Positions 134 to 43,622 of a DNA stretch of 64,000 nucleotides are shown one piece after another. A program made the position numbers and the translations under genes. Source of the DNA: Escherichia phage VEc20. Location: sequence record MN022785.1; one strand, written 5' to 3'. The notes below the pieces were generated by a model that saw only the letters and a program-made list of their open reading frames with translations, had not been told where the DNA came from and did not search any database. Numbering within the stretch: the stretch's first letter is position 1; every line of letters begins with the position of its first letter.

Positions 134-1417
134 ATGGCTAAAATCAACGAACTTCTGCGCGAATCAACCACAACGAATAGCAACTCAATCGGTCGCCCAA
201 ATCTCGTTGCTTTGACTCGCGCTACCACTAAATTAATATATTCTGACATTGTAGCAACGCAAAGAACTAATCAACCTGTTGCTGCTTTTTATGGTATCAA
301 ATACCTTAACCCAGACAATGAATTTACATTTAAAACTGGTGCTACTTACGCTGGCGAAGCTGGATATGTAGACCGAGAACAAATCACAGAATTAACAGAA
401 GAGTCTAAATTAACTCTCAATAAAGGCGATTTATTCAAATATAATAATATCGTTTATAAAGTATTAGAAGATACTCCATTTGCTGATATTGAAGAAAGCG
501 ACTTAGAGTTAGCTCTTCAGATTGCAATTGTTCTTTTAAAGGTTCGTCTATTTTCTGACGCAGCGTCAACAAGCAAATTTGAAAGCTCTGATAGTGAAAT
601 TGCGGATGCTAGATTCCAGATTAATAAATGGCAAACCGCAGTTAAATCTCGTAAACTTAAAACTGGCATCACAGTTGAATTAGCGCAAGATTTAGAAGCA
701 AATGGATTCGATGCTCCTAATTTCTTGGAAGATTTGCTTGCAACTGAAATGGCGGATGAAATAAATAAAGATATTTTACAGTCTTTGATTACAGTGTCAA
801 AACGCTATAAAGTTACAGGAATTACTGATAATGGATTCATCGATTTGAGTTATGCATCTGCACCTGAAGCTGGTCGTTCATTATATCGAATGGTATGTGA
901 AATGGTTTCACATATCCAAAAAGAATCAACTTATACAGCAACATTTTGTGTAGCTTCAGCTCGTGCTGCTGCGATTCTTGCTGCATCAGGTTGGTTAAAA
1001 CATAAACCGGAAGATGATAAATATCTTTCACAAAATGCCTACGGGTTCTTAGCTAATGGTTTACCGCTTTATTGCGATACTAACAGCCCATTAGATTATG
1101 TAATCGTTGGTGTAGTAGAAAATATCGGTGAAAAAGAAATTGTTGGTTCAATTTTCTATGCTCCGTATACAGAAGGTCTTGACTTAGATGACCCTGAACA
1201 TGTAGGTGCATTTAAAGTTGTTGTTGATCCAGAAAGCTTACAACCGTCTATCGGTTTATTAGTTAGATATGCTTTATCAGCAAATCCTTATACCGTAGCA
1301 AAAGATGAAAAAGAAGCAAGAATAATTGATGGTGGAGACATGGATAAAATGGCGGGTCGTTCAGATTTGTCTGTTTTATTAGGTGTTAAATTACCAAAAA
1401 TTATTATTGATGAATAA
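134..1417 (+). CDS. 24: head vertex protein gp24
   Basis: 427-aa ORF recognised as T4 gp24; length matches; late promoter upstream; RBS AAAGGAAAG. Confidence 0.9.
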   Translation: MAKINELLRESTTTNSNSIGRPNLVALTRATTKLIYSDIVATQRTNQPVAAFYGIKYLNPDNEFTFKTGATYAGEAGYVDREQITELTEESKLTLNKGDLFKYNNIVYKVLEDTPFADIEESDLELALQIAIVLLKVRLFSDAASTSKFESSDSEIADARFQINKWQTAVKSRKLKTGITVELAQDLEANGFDAPNFLEDLLATEMADEINKDILQSLITVSKRYKVTGITDNGFIDLSYASAPEAGRSLYRMVCEMVSHIQKESTYTATFCVASARAAAILAASGWLKHKPEDDKYLSQNAYGFLANGLPLYCDTNSPLDYVIVGVVENIGEKEIVGSIFYAPYTEGLDLDDPEHVGAFKVVVDPESLQPSIGLLVRYALSANPYTVAKDEKEARIIDGGDMDKMAGRSDLSVLLGVKLPKIIIDE

Positions 1418-1423
1418 AACAAA

Positions 1424-1448
1424 GGGACCGAAAGGTCCCTTTTTATTT
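1424..1448. terminator. bidirectional intrinsic terminator hairpin
   Basis: GGGACC-GAAA-GGTCCC with A-run before and T-run after; sits between convergent genes 24 and rnlB. Confidence 0.6.
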
Positions 1449-2454
1449 AGCTCACCAACTCAATCCAAGCTGGACGAAGTACATCTTGTACCATTTTAAC
1501 TAATTCCTTTTTAATCAAAGAAGGATTATCTGCTTGAGTTAGAGTAATACCTTCACGAGAAGTTTCTTCCAAAATATCTTGAACAGTTAGCCCCATCACC
1601 TTTCCAAAATCCTTTGGACCAATTTCGCCAATTTTAGAAATAACGTTATTTACGCGGTTTAGTGTAACGTAACAAGCTAAAATTCCAACCAATTTGTTAT
1701 CAGCTTCTGATAGTTCAACTTTAGCTTTAATAGGCTTATCAGACTTTTTCTTTTCACTAAATTTAGAGTTCTTGCATTTAATCGCTACACGAGCACCGTT
1801 TGGCAGCCATTTAGGGAAACAAGGCTTCAGAACATAACCTTCTGCAGTATTATCACCAATAACATTAGCATCAAATACACAATTATTTGCTTCGACAAGG
1901 TCTTCCGATGCCGTAACGTTATAAGCGGCTAAGACGGAATCAAGGTCGTTTGGAATCATGATAAGAGCATCAAATGTTCCACGTCCAAGCATTGGTGCCA
2001 TTTTAAAACCAAACGTATTACAGAAATCTTGCATTTCGTAATCACTCATGTAATAAGTATCACCGCTTTCCGTGTTTATGATGATATCGAATACATAGAA
2101 ATCTTTTTCACCGTAGTCAACACCTTTCTGAATTCCACCACCAGCGAATTCACCAAAGACTTGATATGTCACCGGCATTGAAGTTGAAATACTGTCCATG
2201 ACTTCTTGAACGCCTTTAATAGCTTTATCATACTTTTTGAGTACTATTTCATAGCCATAAAAATCTTCTGCTGGAAGAATAGGGCCAGTACGTTTAGCGC
2301 AAGTTACTTTATCACGCTCAATAATCAATGAGAAATTTGTACCATGAATCTTTTCACGAGCTACCCACTCCCCACCAGTCAATCCCAAGCTATAAAGTTT
2401 TTCAATGAATTTAGAATTGTAATGATTTTCAAGACTGCTATATTTTTTAAACAT
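1447..2454 (-). CDS. rnlB: RNA ligase 2
   Basis: 335-aa ORF starting [12 protein letters not shown] with the KIHGTN adenylation motif; T4 Rnl2 is about 334 aa at this position. Confidence 0.9.
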
Positions 2455-37061: not shown

Positions 37062-38077
37062 CATTATGTTCAGATAAGGTCGTTAATCTTATCCCGGAAT
37101 TATATCCAGCTGCATGTCACCATGCAGAGCAGACTATATCTCCAACTTGTTAAAGCAAGTTGTCTATCGTTTCGAGTCACTTGACCCTACTCCCTAAAGG
37201 GATAGTCGTTAGGCATTTATGTAGAACCAATTCCACTTATCAGATTTTACACGGTAAGTAACTAATCCTGATGAAATTTCAAAATGTCTAGCCGCATCGG
37301 CTGCACATTCAAAAATAATCCCATCGCATGAAATCTTTTTGATGTTAGCTGGCTTTTTGCCTTTCATCTTTTCAGATAGTTTAGTTTTAGTTTTTTCTGA
37401 ATGTTTGTGATTAAAGAACGGGTTATTTTCACCTGAACGTTTTCGGCACTTTCCACAAGTATCGGCCGAAGATGGTATGCGAACACCGCATTTACAAAAC
37501 TTGTGGTTTTCTGGATTCCATCGGCCATTTTTACTTCCGTGTTTACCATAAAGAGCTTTCCGACCATCAGGACCAAGCTTAAGCATCTTAGCTTTAACAG
37601 TTTCAGCTCGTTTCTTAGCAATTTCTTCTTTTAATGGATGATTTGAAAGCACATCGCCAAAAGACGCATCAGCAATATTATATCCATTAATTTTAGAATT
37701 TAGCTCTTTAATCCAAAAATTTTCTCGTTCAATAATCAAATCTTTCTCATATGGAATTTCTTCCAGTACAGAGCATTCAAAAACATTACCATGTTTATTA
37801 AAAGACCTTTGAAATTTTATAGAAGAGTGAACACCGTTTTCAAGGTCTTTAAAATGTCTCTTCCATCTTTTCTCAAAATCTTTAGCACTTCCAACATACA
37901 CTTTACCGTTTAAAGTGTTTTTAATCTGATAAATTCCGCTTTTCATAAACACCTCTTTTTATATAGAAGTATTTATTAAAGGGTAGTCCTACAATTTAGC
38001 ACGGGATTGTCTACTAGAGAGGTCCCCCGTTTAGATAGATTACAAGTATAAGTCACCTTATACCTAGGCCTAAATTA
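37062..38077 (-). mobile_element. td group I self-splicing intron carrying the I-TevI gene
   Basis: 1016 nt between exon 1 (...FLG) and exon 2; 5' end reads UAAUUUAGGCCUAGGUAUAAGGUGAC and 3' end ...CAUAAUG, as in the T4 td intron. Confidence 0.85.
37209..37946 (-). CDS. I-TevI: intron-encoded GIY-YIG homing endonuclease I-TevI
   Basis: 245 aa from ATG 37946 (MKSGIYQIKNTLNGKVYVGS...) with RBS GAGG. Confidence 0.85.
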   Translation of the reverse strand: MKSGIYQIKNTLNGKVYVGSAKDFEKRWKRHFKDLENGVHSSIKFQRSFNKHGNVFECSVLEEIPYEKDLIIERENFWIKELNSKINGYNIADASFGDVLSNHPLKEEIAKKRAETVKAKMLKLGPDGRKALYGKHGSKNGRWNPENHKFCKCGVRIPSSADTCGKCRKRSGENNPFFNHKHSEKTKTKLSEKMKGKKPANIKKISCDGIIFECAADAARHFEISSGLVTYRVKSDKWNWFYINA

Positions 38078-38626
38078 ACCCAAGAAAACATCTACACTGC
38101 GTTGATACCACTGCAAATCCAAATAGCCATTACGCACATTAAACTGATAGAACATATGACAAGGCGGTAATGCCATATATTTAAGTTCAGCTGGATTCCA
38201 CGCAGAAACAATTTGTCGCCTATCATTCGGCAGTTTTTTAATACGATCAATAACTTCTACAATTTGGTCTACACCGCCAAAATCACGCCACTGTTTTCCA
38301 TAAATTGGACCAAGTTCACCGCTATGGTATCCTAAATCTTTTGCTTGATTTTCGTAATTTTCATCCCAGACTGTTTTGCCTTGAATTAATGAATCATGCT
38401 GAATTAATCGTAAATCATTGACATTTGTGCTTCCTGATAAAAACCAAAGTAGCTCAGCAATGCATGCATTCCAGGCGAGCTTTTTAGTTGTTACTGCAGG
38501 AAAACCTTTACTTAAATCCCAGCGTAATTTAGTACCGAACAAAGCAATTGTTCCTGTGCCTGTTCGATCATCGGTTTCATAGCCATTTTCAAAAATGTCT
38601 TTAATTAAATCTTGGTATTGTTTCAT
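38078..38626 (-). CDS. td: thymidylate synthase, exon 1
   Basis: 183 codons MKQYQDLIKD...QRSVDVFLG ending at the 5' splice site; 183 + 103 = 286 aa. Confidence 0.85.
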
Positions 38627-39039: not shown

Positions 39040-39866
<827 letters not shown>

Positions 39867-40989: not shown

Positions 40990-41017
40990 AAATAAAAAGG
41001 GGACCTCTAGGGTCCCC
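40990..41017 (-). terminator. intrinsic terminator downstream of gene 32
   Basis: GGGGACC...GGTCCCC hairpin followed on the minus strand by TTTTTATTT. Confidence 0.6.
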
Positions 41018-41039
41018 AATTAATTAGTAATATAATCTA

Positions 41040-41945
41040 TTAAAGGTCATTCAAAAGGTCATCTAGGTCCGTGTCATCAGCACTAGATGAACTGCCAGAG
41101 CTTGAGCTCATAAAATCATCTTCAGTTTTTGTATTGAAGTCATCAACATTGAATGCATCCAAATCATCAGCAACTTTATCAGCTTTCTTAGCAGCAGTTG
41201 CAGCAGCACCGCCCATCACAGCAGTTCCCATAACTTGACCGAATTTAGTATTCAGTTCTTCAAATGATTTGAATTTATCTTTAGAAGTCATTTCAGAAAG
41301 GTCAACCATTTGTTCGAACAGTTCTTTCTGGAAAGATTCATCATCAATGTTTGGAATCGCAGATTGATTCAGGAATTTAGATTCATCGTAGTTACTAAAT
41401 CCGGAAACTTGTTTAACTTTCAGTACAAAGTTAGCACCTTCCCACGGACAAGTTACATCAACCGGAGTTTCACCCATTTCAACATCAACCGCAATCATTG
41501 CATTGATTTTATCCCAGATTTTCTTACCGAAACGATATTTAAATACTTTACCTTCATTTTCTGGAGCAGCTGGGTCTTTTACAACAAGAATATTAGCCCA
41601 GTAAGAAGTTTTACGTTTAACAAGACTGTACTCTTTATTGTCAGTGTTGTACAGATCATTTTTACTGATGTACTGACATACTGGGCAAGAATCGTAATCA
41701 CCATGGGTAGATGAACATGTTTCAATATACCATTTACCATTTTTCTTGAAACCGTGATTTACAAGAATTGCGAATGGTGCTTGTTCATCATTTTTAGACG
41801 GAAGAAAACGAATTACTGCTTGACCGTTACCCGCATTATCGAGTTTCAGTTTCCACTCGCCTTTATCTTCAGAAGAAAAACCTTTATTGCCATTCAGTTT
41901 AGCCATTTGTGCAGCAAGTTCAGCAGTAGATTTACGTTTAAACAT
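41040..41945 (-). CDS. 32: single-stranded DNA-binding protein gp32
   Basis: 301-aa [24 protein letters not shown]... with an acidic C-terminal tail. Confidence 0.95.
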
Positions 41946-42012
41946 TTTATTTCCTTTTTAATTTAATTTAATTAACAGTTGGTGCTATGACACTTTACCT
42001 CATAGCTGGCAT
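41946..42012 (-). promoter_or_regulatory. gene 32 translational operator (pseudoknot plus A/U-rich repeat)
   Basis: mRNA leader GCUAUGAGGUAAAGUGUCAUAGCACCAACUGUUAAUUAAAUUAAAUUAAAAAGGAAAUAAA-AUG matches the T4 gene 32 autoregulatory leader. Confidence 0.7.
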
Positions 42013-42632
42013 AATTCGCAATACTCTGGGTCTTCGAGAGGTATCCAACCTAAGTTGAAATACTTTACCATCGATTTAGCAGTTGTATCAGTTATATTTA
42101 TATTACCTTTAACTCTTCGCCATCCAGGAGTTTTACCGTACAGATTAGAGGATAATAATAACACATAATTCTCGTAAGCAATATGAGATAATTTCCAAGA
42201 CTCTATATTAGCTCGTGATGTTTTCCAAGGTCTAAAATCGTCACGGTTCATATAATTAGCCAATCTCATATGCTCTCTAACTTCCGGGTCTTTGGCTGGA
42301 TGAGTTTCACCACTCACACCAAATCCACCACCAGCATATACCAGATTAAAATAGTCTGGATTATCTCTTGCATTTACTTCAAGTTGGTATTTTCGTTCTG
42401 CTTCAATAACATCCAAGTCATCATCAATTTGAATTATTTTAACGCTCGGTTTTTGAAGCATTAGCGCATTCAAAAATCTTTTTTGTTTACATGAGCTCCA
42501 GTATTCCTTTCCGGAAGAGTCATATATTATTCCGTTCTCAAATGAGCAATTTAATTTACTACCGATATAATAGTATGGCGGAGTCTTATTTTTGACACGG
42601 TCTTCAAATGTAAACCAATATACTATATTCAT
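42000..42632 (-). CDS. segG: GIY-YIG homing endonuclease (segG-like)
   Basis: 210-aa ORF with N-terminal IVYWFTF...YYIGSK motif; between genes 59 and 32 as segG is in T4. Confidence 0.6.
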   Translation of the reverse strand: MNIVYWFTFEDRVKNKTPPYYYIGSKLNCSFENGIIYDSSGKEYWSSCKQKRFLNALMLQKPSVKIIQIDDDLDVIEAERKYQLEVNARDNPDYFNLVYAGGGFGVSGETHPAKDPEVREHMRLANYMNRDDFRPWKTSRANIESWKLSHIAYENYVLLLSSNLYGKTPGWRRVKGNINITDTTAKSMVKYFNLGWIPLEDPEYCELCQL

Positions 42633-42633
42633 A

Positions 42634-43287
42634 TCAATACTTGCAAGATTTCACAATTTCAATGAAAACATTTTTAGCTTTCTGTGAATCAATATTTAAA
42701 ATTTTTCTATAAGCCTTTAACTTTATAGAATAATTATTCCAGACTAAATTATCAGTCTGTTCATCGTGTTTATCAATTATATTTAAAAACGAATCAAGCA
42801 AGATAAACGTTTCAAACGAAATTATGTTCGATTGAAGTAGTTTAAAAATATAACTTGATTGAACTTTTGGATTATATTCAAAAATTTCTTTAAAAGCAGA
42901 AACTTCAACTTTTTTACTGAAATAGTAAATGTTGCGAATATCTTCTTCAAACTTAAATTTAATTTGCTTCAAGCGTCCGATATATTCACGATAAAACACA
43001 AGTGCATCAGCGTCAGAGATGTCGCCAATCCAAGCATCCTGGTTAGCAACCAGATTGCTTATAAAGATTAAAGCAAGTTCCTTTAATTTATATTTTTCTG
43101 ATAACTTCTGGAAAAAATACTTATCCCTTCGCTTTTGATAAGCGGCATCAGACACCCGCATGCACCAATTATACTTAATTACATCATACTTTCCATTCAT
43201 ATGTTGTTTTATCATTAAGTATAATTTATAAACTGATTTACCATCAATATATCTTTCACCACCAGCAGGCATGCGGAGTTTAATCAT
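42634..43287 (-). CDS. 59: helicase loader gp59
   Basis: 217-aa ORF, T4 gp59 length and position. Confidence 0.85.
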   Translation of the reverse strand: MIKLRMPAGGERYIDGKSVYKLYLMIKQHMNGKYDVIKYNWCMRVSDAAYQKRRDKYFFQKLSEKYKLKELALIFISNLVANQDAWIGDISDADALVFYREYIGRLKQIKFKFEEDIRNIYYFSKKVEVSAFKEIFEYNPKVQSSYIFKLLQSNIISFETFILLDSFLNIIDKHDEQTDNLVWNNYSIKLKAYRKILNIDSQKAKNVFIEIVKSCKY

Positions 43288-43622
43288 AGTAGAAAATCTA
43301 ATGTATTAGTTTTTTCACAACGAACAACAGAAGGACGTAAAAGATTTTCGTCAATAGCTTCTGACTGAATTTTTTCAATTATACCCGAAGGAATAAATTT
43401 AGCAAATTGAGTTTCAGGAATAGAATTTTCTTCCAAGAATGCTGTTGTAGCTTCAAGATAACTCATTCCAAACTCTTCTACCATTTTTTCAATAATAAAT
43501 CCATTTTCTTGACGATCAAGAAGCTTTGCTATTTCATCCTTTTCTTTCTTGATTGAAAGTTCTTTTTCTGAAAGACCGGTCTCATCGACCGGACGAATAT
43601 CATTTAGAGAAAACTGTGTCAT
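43284..43622 (-). CDS. 33: late transcription co-activator gp33
   Basis: 112 aa from ATG 43622 (MTQFSLNDIRPV...); the supplied ORF starts at an upstream TTG. Confidence 0.7.
   Translation of the reverse strand: MTQFSLNDIRPVDETGLSEKELSIKKEKDEIAKLLDRQENGFIIEKMVEEFGMSYLEATTAFLEENSIPETQFAKFIPSGIIEKIQSEAIDENLLRPSVVRCEKTNTLDFLL

Follow-up and report, generated by a model that had tools for sequence, protein, structure and literature searches.

Where exactly does the gene of a homing endonuclease end when its downstream neighbour is controlled by a structured operator, and which of the two partners is constrained by the bases that they share? This question is raised by a locus of Escherichia phage VEc20 (sequence record MN022785.1), which we studied within a 64,000-nucleotide stretch of DNA, hereafter the window; all coordinates refer to it, and all features for which they are given lie on its minus strand. 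A reading of the sequence alone, hereafter the sequence-only reading, had proposed that a segG-like GIY-YIG endonuclease gene of 210 codons ends at 42000, that the pseudoknot of the gene 32 mRNA begins inside its last codons, and that the 3' coding sequence of the endonuclease is constrained by this autoregulatory structure. The interpretation that we favour, with a probability of slightly above 90%, is that the locus is the segG gene of phage T4 abutting the gene 32 translational operator, i.e. a mobile cassette whose last codons consist of pseudoknot sequence. Evidence against this identification was not encountered.

Results

Identity of the locus

The open reading frame at 42000..42632 (210 codons plus stop; ATG at 42632..42630, TGA at 42002..42000) is segG, known in T4 as ORF 32.1, and its coordinates are as the sequence-only reading had given them. 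Over the 1 kb between 41800 and 42800, the window is 99.3% identical in nucleotide sequence to phage T4 and represents a T4-type phage, while the encoded protein shares 209 of 210 residues with T4 SegG, the sole difference being L194 (S194 in T4). The matching T4 frame is annotated as 'SegG homing endonuclease; GIY-YIG family', and on the basis of this identity and annotation we treat the gene as a free-standing GIY-YIG homing endonuclease gene. It sits between genes 59 and 32, the same site as in T4. Gene 59, which encodes the helicase loader (42634..43287; Pfam T4_Gp59_N and T4_Gp59_C), stops with TGA at 42636..42634, leaving one base before the segG ATG, and no Shine-Dalgarno sequence is evident upstream of that ATG. 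Gene 32, encoding the single-stranded DNA-binding protein of 301 amino acids (41040..41945; Pfam gp32, E 4.9e-67), is followed by a terminator-like hairpin (41017..40999) identified in a terminator scan. The likeness to T4 extends to the length of SegG, the pseudoknot, the 12-nt overlap described below and the neighbours (59, 32 and the frd side). That said, an A present in T4 immediately ahead of the AUG is missing from the leader of the window, and the gap from the segG stop to the gene 32 start is 54 nt as compared with 55 nt in T4. McPheeters et al. (1988) and Shamoo et al. (1993) are reportedly the sources on the translational operator of gene 32 in T4.

Since sequence models fail on SegG, its membership in the GIY-YIG family had to be tested by fold. 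Namely, Pfam gives no match for SegG even at E<=10, the SegG family profile finds no GIY-YIG chain among PDB sequences (only a spurious isochorismatase match at E = 1), and hhalign of the same profile against the I-TevI encoded in the window itself (37212..37946) yields a probability of 3.6%, covering only a NUMOD3-like stretch. The fold test, on the other hand, finds in SegG the alpha/beta catalytic fold of the family. The motifs are present as well: IVY occupies residues 3-5 and YIG residues 22-24, with Y5, Y22, I23 and G24 invariant in 26 SegG homologues. The spacer between them, at 16 residues, is longer than the 10-11 residues typical of I-TevI. The conserved catalytic residues of I-TevI are R27, E75 and N90; in SegG, E79 and N96 are invariant, and their EAER...FNL context resembles ERE...YNI of I-TevI, while an invariant arginine of the sequence alignment, R12, is placed between the two motifs and not after YIG. 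The assignment rests on fold, motifs and published biochemistry, the latter including site-specific DNA cleavage by T4 SegG (Liu et al. 2003, as cited in PMC2988022 and PMC2330249).

Anatomy of the overlap

The gene 32 pseudoknot of the window is UGCC-A-GCUAUGA-GGUA-AAGUG-UCAUAGC, spanning 42011..41984. Its 5' arm of stem 1, UGCC (42008..42011), falls within segG codons 208-209 and, like the 3' arm GGUA (41996..41999), is defined by pairing and covariation. Loop 1 is a single A (42007), invariant in 14 of the 14 aligned variants, and loop 2 is AAGUG (41991..41995), as read from the sequence. The 5' arm of stem 2, GCUAUGA (42000..42006), which recurs in segG-less T2, ends in the very UGA that stops segG (42002..42000), and it pairs with UCAUAGC (41984..41990), an arm placed by covariation, the stem 2 hairpin also appearing in the minimum free energy fold. 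The rest of the operator (41946..41983) is unstructured and contains ACCAACUGU, UUAAA/AUUAA repeats and the Shine-Dalgarno sequence AAGGAA, located by sequence with functions taken from the literature (PMC535899, PMC3014915); the number of A/U repeats in the gene 32 leader varies from 2 to 5 among relatives.

Written as RNA, the junction reads ...UAU UGC GAA UUA UGC CAG CUA UGA GGUAAAGUGUCAUAGCACC..., and segG and the pseudoknot share 12 nt, namely the codons for Cys208, Gln209 and Leu210 (UGC CAG CUA) together with the stop UGA. Relative to the gene 32 AUG, the pseudoknot occupies -66..-39 in the window and -67..-40 in T4, where our computed start agrees with the published one at -67 (Uzan & Miller 2010, PMC3014915). 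Specific binding of gp32 and translational repression at this operator have been published for both T4 and RB69, and the gp32 footprint on T4 RNA is reported to reach U(-70), i.e. into segG codons (PMC535899).

The sequence-only reading thus had the overlap right in kind, with the start of the pseudoknot upstream of 42000 and inside the last segG codons, but not in extent. The string that it took for the pseudoknot, GCUAUGAGGUAAAGUGUCAUAGCACC, is present and begins within these codons, at 42006, but lacks the 5' arm of stem 1 and loop 1. The actual start is at 42011, 5 nt further upstream, and the overlap comprises 12 nt (three sense codons and the stop) rather than the implied 7 nt. What is more, the trailing ACC of the string does not belong to the structure, which ends at 41984.

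Comparative evidence for the pseudoknot

We gathered gene 32 leaders from annotated phages, IMG/VR contigs and metagenomic contigs, and found elements of the same architecture in Tequatrovirus, Mosigvirus, Jiaodavirus, Dhakavirus and several further lineages, amounting to 14 distinct sequences. In their MAFFT alignment, whose columns are anchored by invariant flanks (CCAG..., ...ACCAACUGU), 95.2% of the cells form standard pairs, a percentage inflated by selection since the pseudoknot finder demands fully paired stems, while sliding the partners by 1-3 columns lowers it to 26-48%. Eight of the 12 pairs change on both sides; an alignment of 11 sequences was also analysed. In particular, stem 2 is 100% paired with 4 of its 7 pairs covarying, as seen in the compensatory variants GCUAUGA/UCAUAGC, GCUACGA/UCGUAGC, GUUGCAA/UUGCAAC and GUUAUCA/UGAUAAC, and stem 1 varies in the same manner (UGACC/GGUCA, GUCC/GGAC, ACCU/AGGU and CACC/GGUG). 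Both stems covary across at least six genera, and it is this comparative evidence that is decisive for the pseudoknot.

Insertion boundary and linkage

Among the phages compared, 140 records carry segG, while in approximately 400 close relatives genes 59 and 32 are directly adjacent; in other words, segG fills the 59-32 spacer in about a quarter of T4-like coliphages, a presence/absence polymorphism among close relatives with clean junctions. In the alignment with T2, homology on the left ends directly after the gene 59 stop and resumes on the right at CCAGCUAUGAGG, corresponding to 42009, the base at which alignments of the segG-less records begin (query base 12). The break between 42009 and 42010 therefore lies inside the 5' arm of stem 1, and the suggestion of the sequence-only reading that comparison with endonuclease-less phages might reveal the pseudoknot as the insertion boundary holds for the right-hand side of the insertion. 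In segG-less loci with a pseudoknot, the gp59 stop is always located 8-42 nt upstream of it, and a stop inside the pseudoknot occurs only in loci with segG.

The pseudoknot of T2/T6 has the same H-type architecture as that of the window, with identical stem 2 arms, loop 1 A and ACCAACUGU-UUAAA operator. However, its stem 1 comprises 5 bp (UGACC/GGUCA) and its loop 2 comprises 7 nt, as compared with 4 bp and 5 nt in the window, and in T2 the structure is wholly intergenic, lying 34 nt after the gene 59 stop. Its structure has reportedly been solved by NMR (2TPK; Du, Giedroc & Hoffman 1996; Holland et al. 1999). The 45-nt spacer of T2 that is displaced by segG carries TTGCTTA-12 nt-TATAAT (MotA box and -10) and TATAAATA, resembling elements of middle and late promoters, respectively. 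The operator of RB69/Mosigvirus (Borjac-Natour et al. 2004), again from phages without segG, shares the architecture, and its loop 2 (AAGUG) and 3' arm of stem 1 are almost those of the T4 type (GGUAUAAGUG over this region, as compared with GGUAAAGUG in the T4 type), but it exhibits a compensatory change from U-A to C-G in stem 2 (GCUACGA/UCGUAGC) and a longer A/U-rich operator.

Two alleles of the pseudoknot can therefore be told apart, a T4 type (UGCC...GGUAAAGUG) and a T2 type (UGACC...GGUCAUACAUCG). Operators at least 90% identical to that of the window occur in 140 records, a count equal to that of segG. In the sampled rows, the T4-type operator is always accompanied by a homing endonuclease under the match and the T2-type operator never is, and the sampled loci with segG have an identical pseudoknot and stop, differing only in the number of UUAAA repeats. 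Equal counts (140 and 140) together with 60 sampled rows, every one of which fits, are consistent with the T4-type allele and segG travelling together. Such linkage is predicted by the published mechanism, in which genomes without segG are cut in their gene 32 by SegG, and the interval from the cut to segG is co-converted during repair; both the homing of SegG and the exclusion of T2 gene 32 have been described (PMC2988022, PMC2330249).

Consequences for the protein tail

Would the protein suffer from having its end written by an RNA structure? In the family alignment, the conserved pattern near the SegG C-terminus is ...D-P-E-[FY]-[ILC]-x-L; behind it come two to five residues that vary (KRS, KYS, ALS, KNS, KMLYSK and others), and SegG of T4 and of the window ends within 1-4 residues of the other full-length homologues. 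The pseudoknot begins directly 3' of UUA, the codon of the conserved Leu207, and the overlap is thus confined to the variable tail; the protein probably pays a negligible price for it. Given that the two stems covary between genera and that the three residues vary in the family, we take the RNA to be the constrained partner and the protein tail to be free. The constraint on segG coding that the sequence-only reading had proposed is thus supported, but is limited to codons 208-210 and the stop, i.e. to non-conserved residues. Phages with segG diverge by about 1%, which is too little to reveal purifying selection on the 12 overlapped bases directly.

Two further ideas about this end of the gene were discarded. 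We considered the CxxC of the T4 tail (CELCQL*) as a remnant of the C2HC zinc finger of the PKO111 type described below; the pseudoknot-homologous bases are, however, read in different frames, and the corresponding residues of SegG-type homologues are I/L and K. We also rejected the idea that the pseudoknot stimulates read-through or frameshifting: the stop is inside the structure and not upstream of it, there is no slippery heptamer, and read-through would add only four codons before a UAG.

Promoters and processing within segG

The middle and late promoters of gene 32 lie inside segG, and segG-gene 32 transcripts are processed by RNase E (Edgell, Gibb & Belfort 2010, PMC2988022). In agreement with this published embedding, an exact match to the late-promoter consensus, TATAAATA, is found in segG at 42095..42102, 150 nt upstream of the gene 32 AUG, and we regard it as a candidate embedded late promoter, with the reservation that the 11 occurrences of the motif in the window are not above chance (8.4 expected). 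In segG-less phages, TATAAATA is located 4-17 nt 5' of the pseudoknot. A MotA-box-like AUUGCUUA followed by a -10-like UGUUAU/UAUUAU (42155..42182), picked out by eye, is a weak candidate for the embedded middle promoter. A sigma-70 scan gave 9 promoter-like sites against 11 expected, i.e. below chance, and was not taken as evidence.

An RNase E cut at -71 has been reported in all gene 32 mRNAs (Uzan & Miller 2010, PMC3014915). By transfer of coordinates from T4, its equivalent (approximately 42015) falls in the GAAUUA of segG codons 206-207 (42012..42017), 4 nt 5' of the pseudoknot. Cleavage there would produce a gene 32 mRNA with its 5' end 4 nt ahead of the pseudoknot, along with an upstream segG fragment that lacks its last codons and stop.

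In these respects segG resembles other free-standing endonuclease cassettes of T4, namely segA, segE, mobB, mobC and mobE, which are likewise promoter-less or co-transcribed, lie between essential genes and contain within their reading frames the signals for the downstream essential gene (PMC2988022). It differs from them in that its 3' signal is a repressor-binding structure that shares coding bases, and not only a promoter.

Junctions in other genera

At the 59/32 site, SegG homologues are present in several genera, and their 3' junctions differ. In Dhakavirus Bp7/VR5 and in locus L107, the stop lies 21-30 nt upstream of an intact pseudoknot; in L108 it lies 4 nt upstream, the last codons TAT AAA TAA forming TATAAATA; T4 has the 12-nt overlap; and in L105/L106, a type known solely from metagenomic reads, the frame takes in the whole 28-nt pseudoknot (-65..-38) and ends at -27, giving the homologue, a predicted protein of 219 aa, the tail ...EFIELVHQVQGETLHQLT. 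This last case is a genuine extension of the reading frame into the pseudoknot of the recipient.

Finally, in Klebsiella phage PKO111, Hyena_ER38 and L101-L104, the stop is 3-26 nt from the gene 32 AUG and there is no pseudoknot. The endonucleases of this group represent a second architecture, which combines a SegG-like catalytic domain with a NUMOD3 motif (matched weakly by Pfam, E 0.0036, under the gathering score) and a zinc-finger-like CxxC…H…C in the C-terminal half, and their tails (KLNLKTV*, NQIKTVN*, LNKIKVK*) are translated A/U-rich leader. Over genes 59 and 32, PKO111 shares 97% identity with a Jiaodavirus that has no endonuclease at this site, L007, whose gene 32 leader has a canonical pseudoknot; in the gene 32 leader of PKO111 none was found. 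A cryptic candidate inside the endonuclease reading frame of PKO111 (UCC a GUGUGC gGGA ... GCGCGU) was dismissed: it received a finder score of 5.8, as compared with 10-12 for real pseudoknots, and its complementarity, which falls on conserved zinc-finger Cys/His codons and is absent in L103, is probably due to chance. It is conceivable, if speculative at this point, that SegG-family genes repeatedly re-engineered the gene 32 operator, with the pseudoknot tolerating the insertion or being lost, depending on the lineage. We found no description of this spectrum of junctions in the searchable literature.

Discussion

The explanation that we propose is the following. segG would be a mobile, free-standing homing cassette whose left junction lies right after the gene 59 stop and whose right junction falls within stem 1, in its 5' arm, of the H-type pseudoknot at which gp32 binding to its own mRNA is nucleated. 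Insertion at this arm would have left the last three SegG codons and the stop built of pseudoknot sequence, the UGA being simply the 3' end of the GCUAUGA arm that segG-less phages such as T2 also carry. When SegG cuts gene 32 of a segG-less genome, repair would copy donor DNA beginning at the cut, across the operator and on into segG. If a transcript reads through both genes, ribosomes that terminate at the end of segG would open up the pseudoknot; cleavage by RNase E at -71, in segG codon 206, would, however, separate the segG and gene 32 cistrons.

How do the alternatives fare against this explanation? One could argue that there is no functional pseudoknot here, that the complementarity is due to chance or reflects a plain hairpin, and that the 3' end of segG is accordingly unconstrained. 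Indeed, the minimum free energy fold of 41940..42030 gives the stem 2 hairpin only, with z = -0.05 relative to shuffled sequences, although the tool used cannot model pseudoknots. Likewise, a scan of 41000..43400 against the 4227 curated models of Rfam 15 at E<=10 returned no match to the pseudoknot element, giving only sub-threshold, unrelated matches (snoRNA, scaRNA, miRNA, CRISPR repeat and sRNA); this silence means that nothing among the curated models exceeded the threshold, and is therefore no argument against the structure. The covariation of both stems in at least six genera, the NMR structure of the T2 homologue and the footprinting and genetic definition of the T4 element (PMC3014915, PMC535899) already refute this alternative, to which we assign a practically vanishing probability. 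A less remote, albeit still unlikely, possibility is that an ancestral segG, deprived of its stop when it inserted, was extended into the pseudoknot of the recipient, thereby gaining extra residues. This idea was put forward as a chimera hypothesis in 2004 (PMC535899), and it draws support from the fact that CAG CUA UGA, i.e. the final two codons with the stop, also occurs in the pseudoknot of segG-less T2, as well as from the genuine case of L105/L106, where the SegG homologue has approximately 12 extra codons corresponding to the whole pseudoknot. However, the tail of SegG in T4 and the window (…DPEYCELCQL) ends at the same alignment column as the homologues P0002, P0003 and P0006, which argues that the last three codons were replaced and that there was no net lengthening, and homologues whose stops lie intact upstream of the pseudoknot are equally long. 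Given these equal lengths, what is left of the chimera idea for T4 is that its final three codons and its stop were exchanged.

Very improbable, in our estimation, would be an adaptive coupling in which termination of segG translation within stem 2 opens the pseudoknot and relieves the repression of gene 32, or bound gp32 blocks the completion of SegG, so that the levels of the two proteins are tied. The case for it is purely geometric: with a ribosome stopped at the UGA (42002..42000), the two 5' arms would be covered, as would the 3' arm of stem 1, and the footprint up to U(-70) enters segG codons (PMC535899). Yet members of the SegG family do not have the overlap in common, their junctions ranging from a 30-nt spacer to full read-through to no pseudoknot at all; the cleavage reported at -71 for every species of gene 32 mRNA uncouples the cistrons (PMC3014915); and, with the gene 32 promoters inside segG, most gene 32 mRNA cannot translate segG (PMC2988022).

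The finding of the overlap is correct but already known. Namely, it was stated explicitly, in Figure 3 and with an evolutionary reading, by Borjac-Natour, Petrov & Karam (Virol J 2004, PMC535899), and the embedded promoters and the RNase E site at -71 are likewise published. What is new is minor and incremental, i.e. that the overlapped codons are the variable tail of SegG and that other genera have other junctions. The added value is in this sense comparative only: a non-conserved tail, one of several solutions to the junction, and a co-inherited pseudoknot allele.

If leaders of the PKO111 type are truly without a nucleation structure, autoregulation by gp32 in these phages would be either independent of the pseudoknot or lost, and they would represent natural operator knock-outs made by a selfish element. 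As for the T4-type phages, the locus provides a tidy textbook case of a selfish mobile gene, some of whose bases also belong to a regulatory RNA that its host cannot do without. A clean deletion of the endonuclease gene would harm the control of gene 32, and this would help the parasite to persist.

Relationship of SegG-like reading frames to the gene 32 pseudoknot

In two compared loci, L105 and L106 (Logan SRR15237817 and SRR28624380), the SegG homologue P0009 (54% identity) is encoded at 901..1560 and 304..963, respectively. Here, the endonuclease ORF runs across the gene 32 pseudoknot in full (CACC a GGUGCAA GGUG aaacg UUGCAUC, positions -65..-38 relative to the gene 32 AUG) and only stops at -27. 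The tail of this protein, HQVQGETLHQLT, is the translated pseudoknot, and the resulting dual-coding overlap far exceeds that of T4.

In Klebsiella phage PKO111, the endonuclease ORF stands in place of the pseudoknot. Namely, genes 59 and 32 of this phage (L003) are 97% identical to those of an endonuclease-less Jiaodavirus (L007), and while the latter carries a canonical pseudoknot, in PKO111 the ORF extends over the Shine-Dalgarno sequence and ends only 3 nt short of the gene 32 start codon (compared stretches 784..1449 in L003 and 777..844 in L007). No alternative pseudoknot that was convincing could be found. Several genera (L006, L014-L023 and L028), including Kanagawavirus, lack a pseudoknot upstream of gene 32. 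In these loci, the gene 59 stop lies 11-28 nt upstream of the gene 32 AUG, its TAA often falling within the Shine-Dalgarno sequence UAAGGU, and the AACUGU repeats of the leader fall in the final gp59 codons (...KTVKNCKY*).

Each of the zinc-finger-type SegG-like genes (L101-L104 and L093) occupies the site between gene 59 and gene 32, and 3-26 nt separate its stop from the AUG of gene 32. Their final Cys codon is part of an AACAA(C/A)UGU or AAAAACUGU motif, and a like motif occurs in other phages after the pseudoknot or at the end of gene 59. L103 has two copies of AAAAACTGTAAA, one of them in the tail of the ORF and the other in the spacer, which hints at recombination via microhomology.

Individual segG copies and homologues

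One metagenomic T4-like contig (IMGVR_UViG_3300045988_128797; L011 924..1451, also L009) carries a segG copy that matches over 631 nt rather than 630, and whose stop-to-stop frame spans only residues 46-210. This is probably a frameshifted, decaying copy. Its pseudoknot and stop are identical all the same, and a Glu206Lys change lies just 5' of the pseudoknot.

In the Dhakavirus homologues (L090 701..1336 in Bp7; L091 701..1330 in VR5), the annotated start at position 719 (MTWLNRQ...) leaves out the GIY strand. Starting instead from the TTG at 701, which overlaps the stop codon of gene 59, yields (M)NIVYKMTWLNRQ..., like the homologue P0005; six codons are probably missing from the deposited annotation. 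In L108, the last two codons and the stop of the SegG homologue (TAT AAA TAA, 1537..1545) form a late-promoter consensus, TATAAATA, which lies 4 nt upstream of the pseudoknot, the same position at which this motif is found in endonuclease-less phages.

Other features of the window

The I-TevI ORF is listed at 37209..37952 on the minus strand with an upstream GTG as its start, giving 247 aa; I-TevI itself (MKSGIYQIK..., 245 aa) starts at the third codon. Upstream of this ORF is the 5' part of td, with 183 codons (38075..38626, minus strand), and the td group I intron is therefore present in the window. The frd gene is at 39040..39621. On the plus strand, directly across the pseudoknot, there is a sigma-70-like match (ATGACA-17-CATAAT with TG, 41987..42015). 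It is probably meaningless, since the region has no more promoter-like matches than chance would give (9 against 11 expected).

Operator repeats and possible origin of the pseudoknot allele

In the unstructured part of the operator (41946..41983 in the window; L002 and L096-L100), phages that are nearly identical in other respects differ in their number of AUUAA/UUAAA units (2 to 5), in genomes with and without segG alike. The window has three units and, before the AUG of gene 32, one A fewer than T4. In its 3' half (GGUAAAGUG, 41984..41999), the T4-type pseudoknot is nearer the Mosigvirus/RB69 type (GGUAUAAGUG, L004 and L005) than the T2 type (GGUCAUACAUCG), although overall T4 is closer to T2 than to RB69. 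This suggests that the segG-linked pseudoknot allele was derived from, or exchanged with, an RB69-like background.
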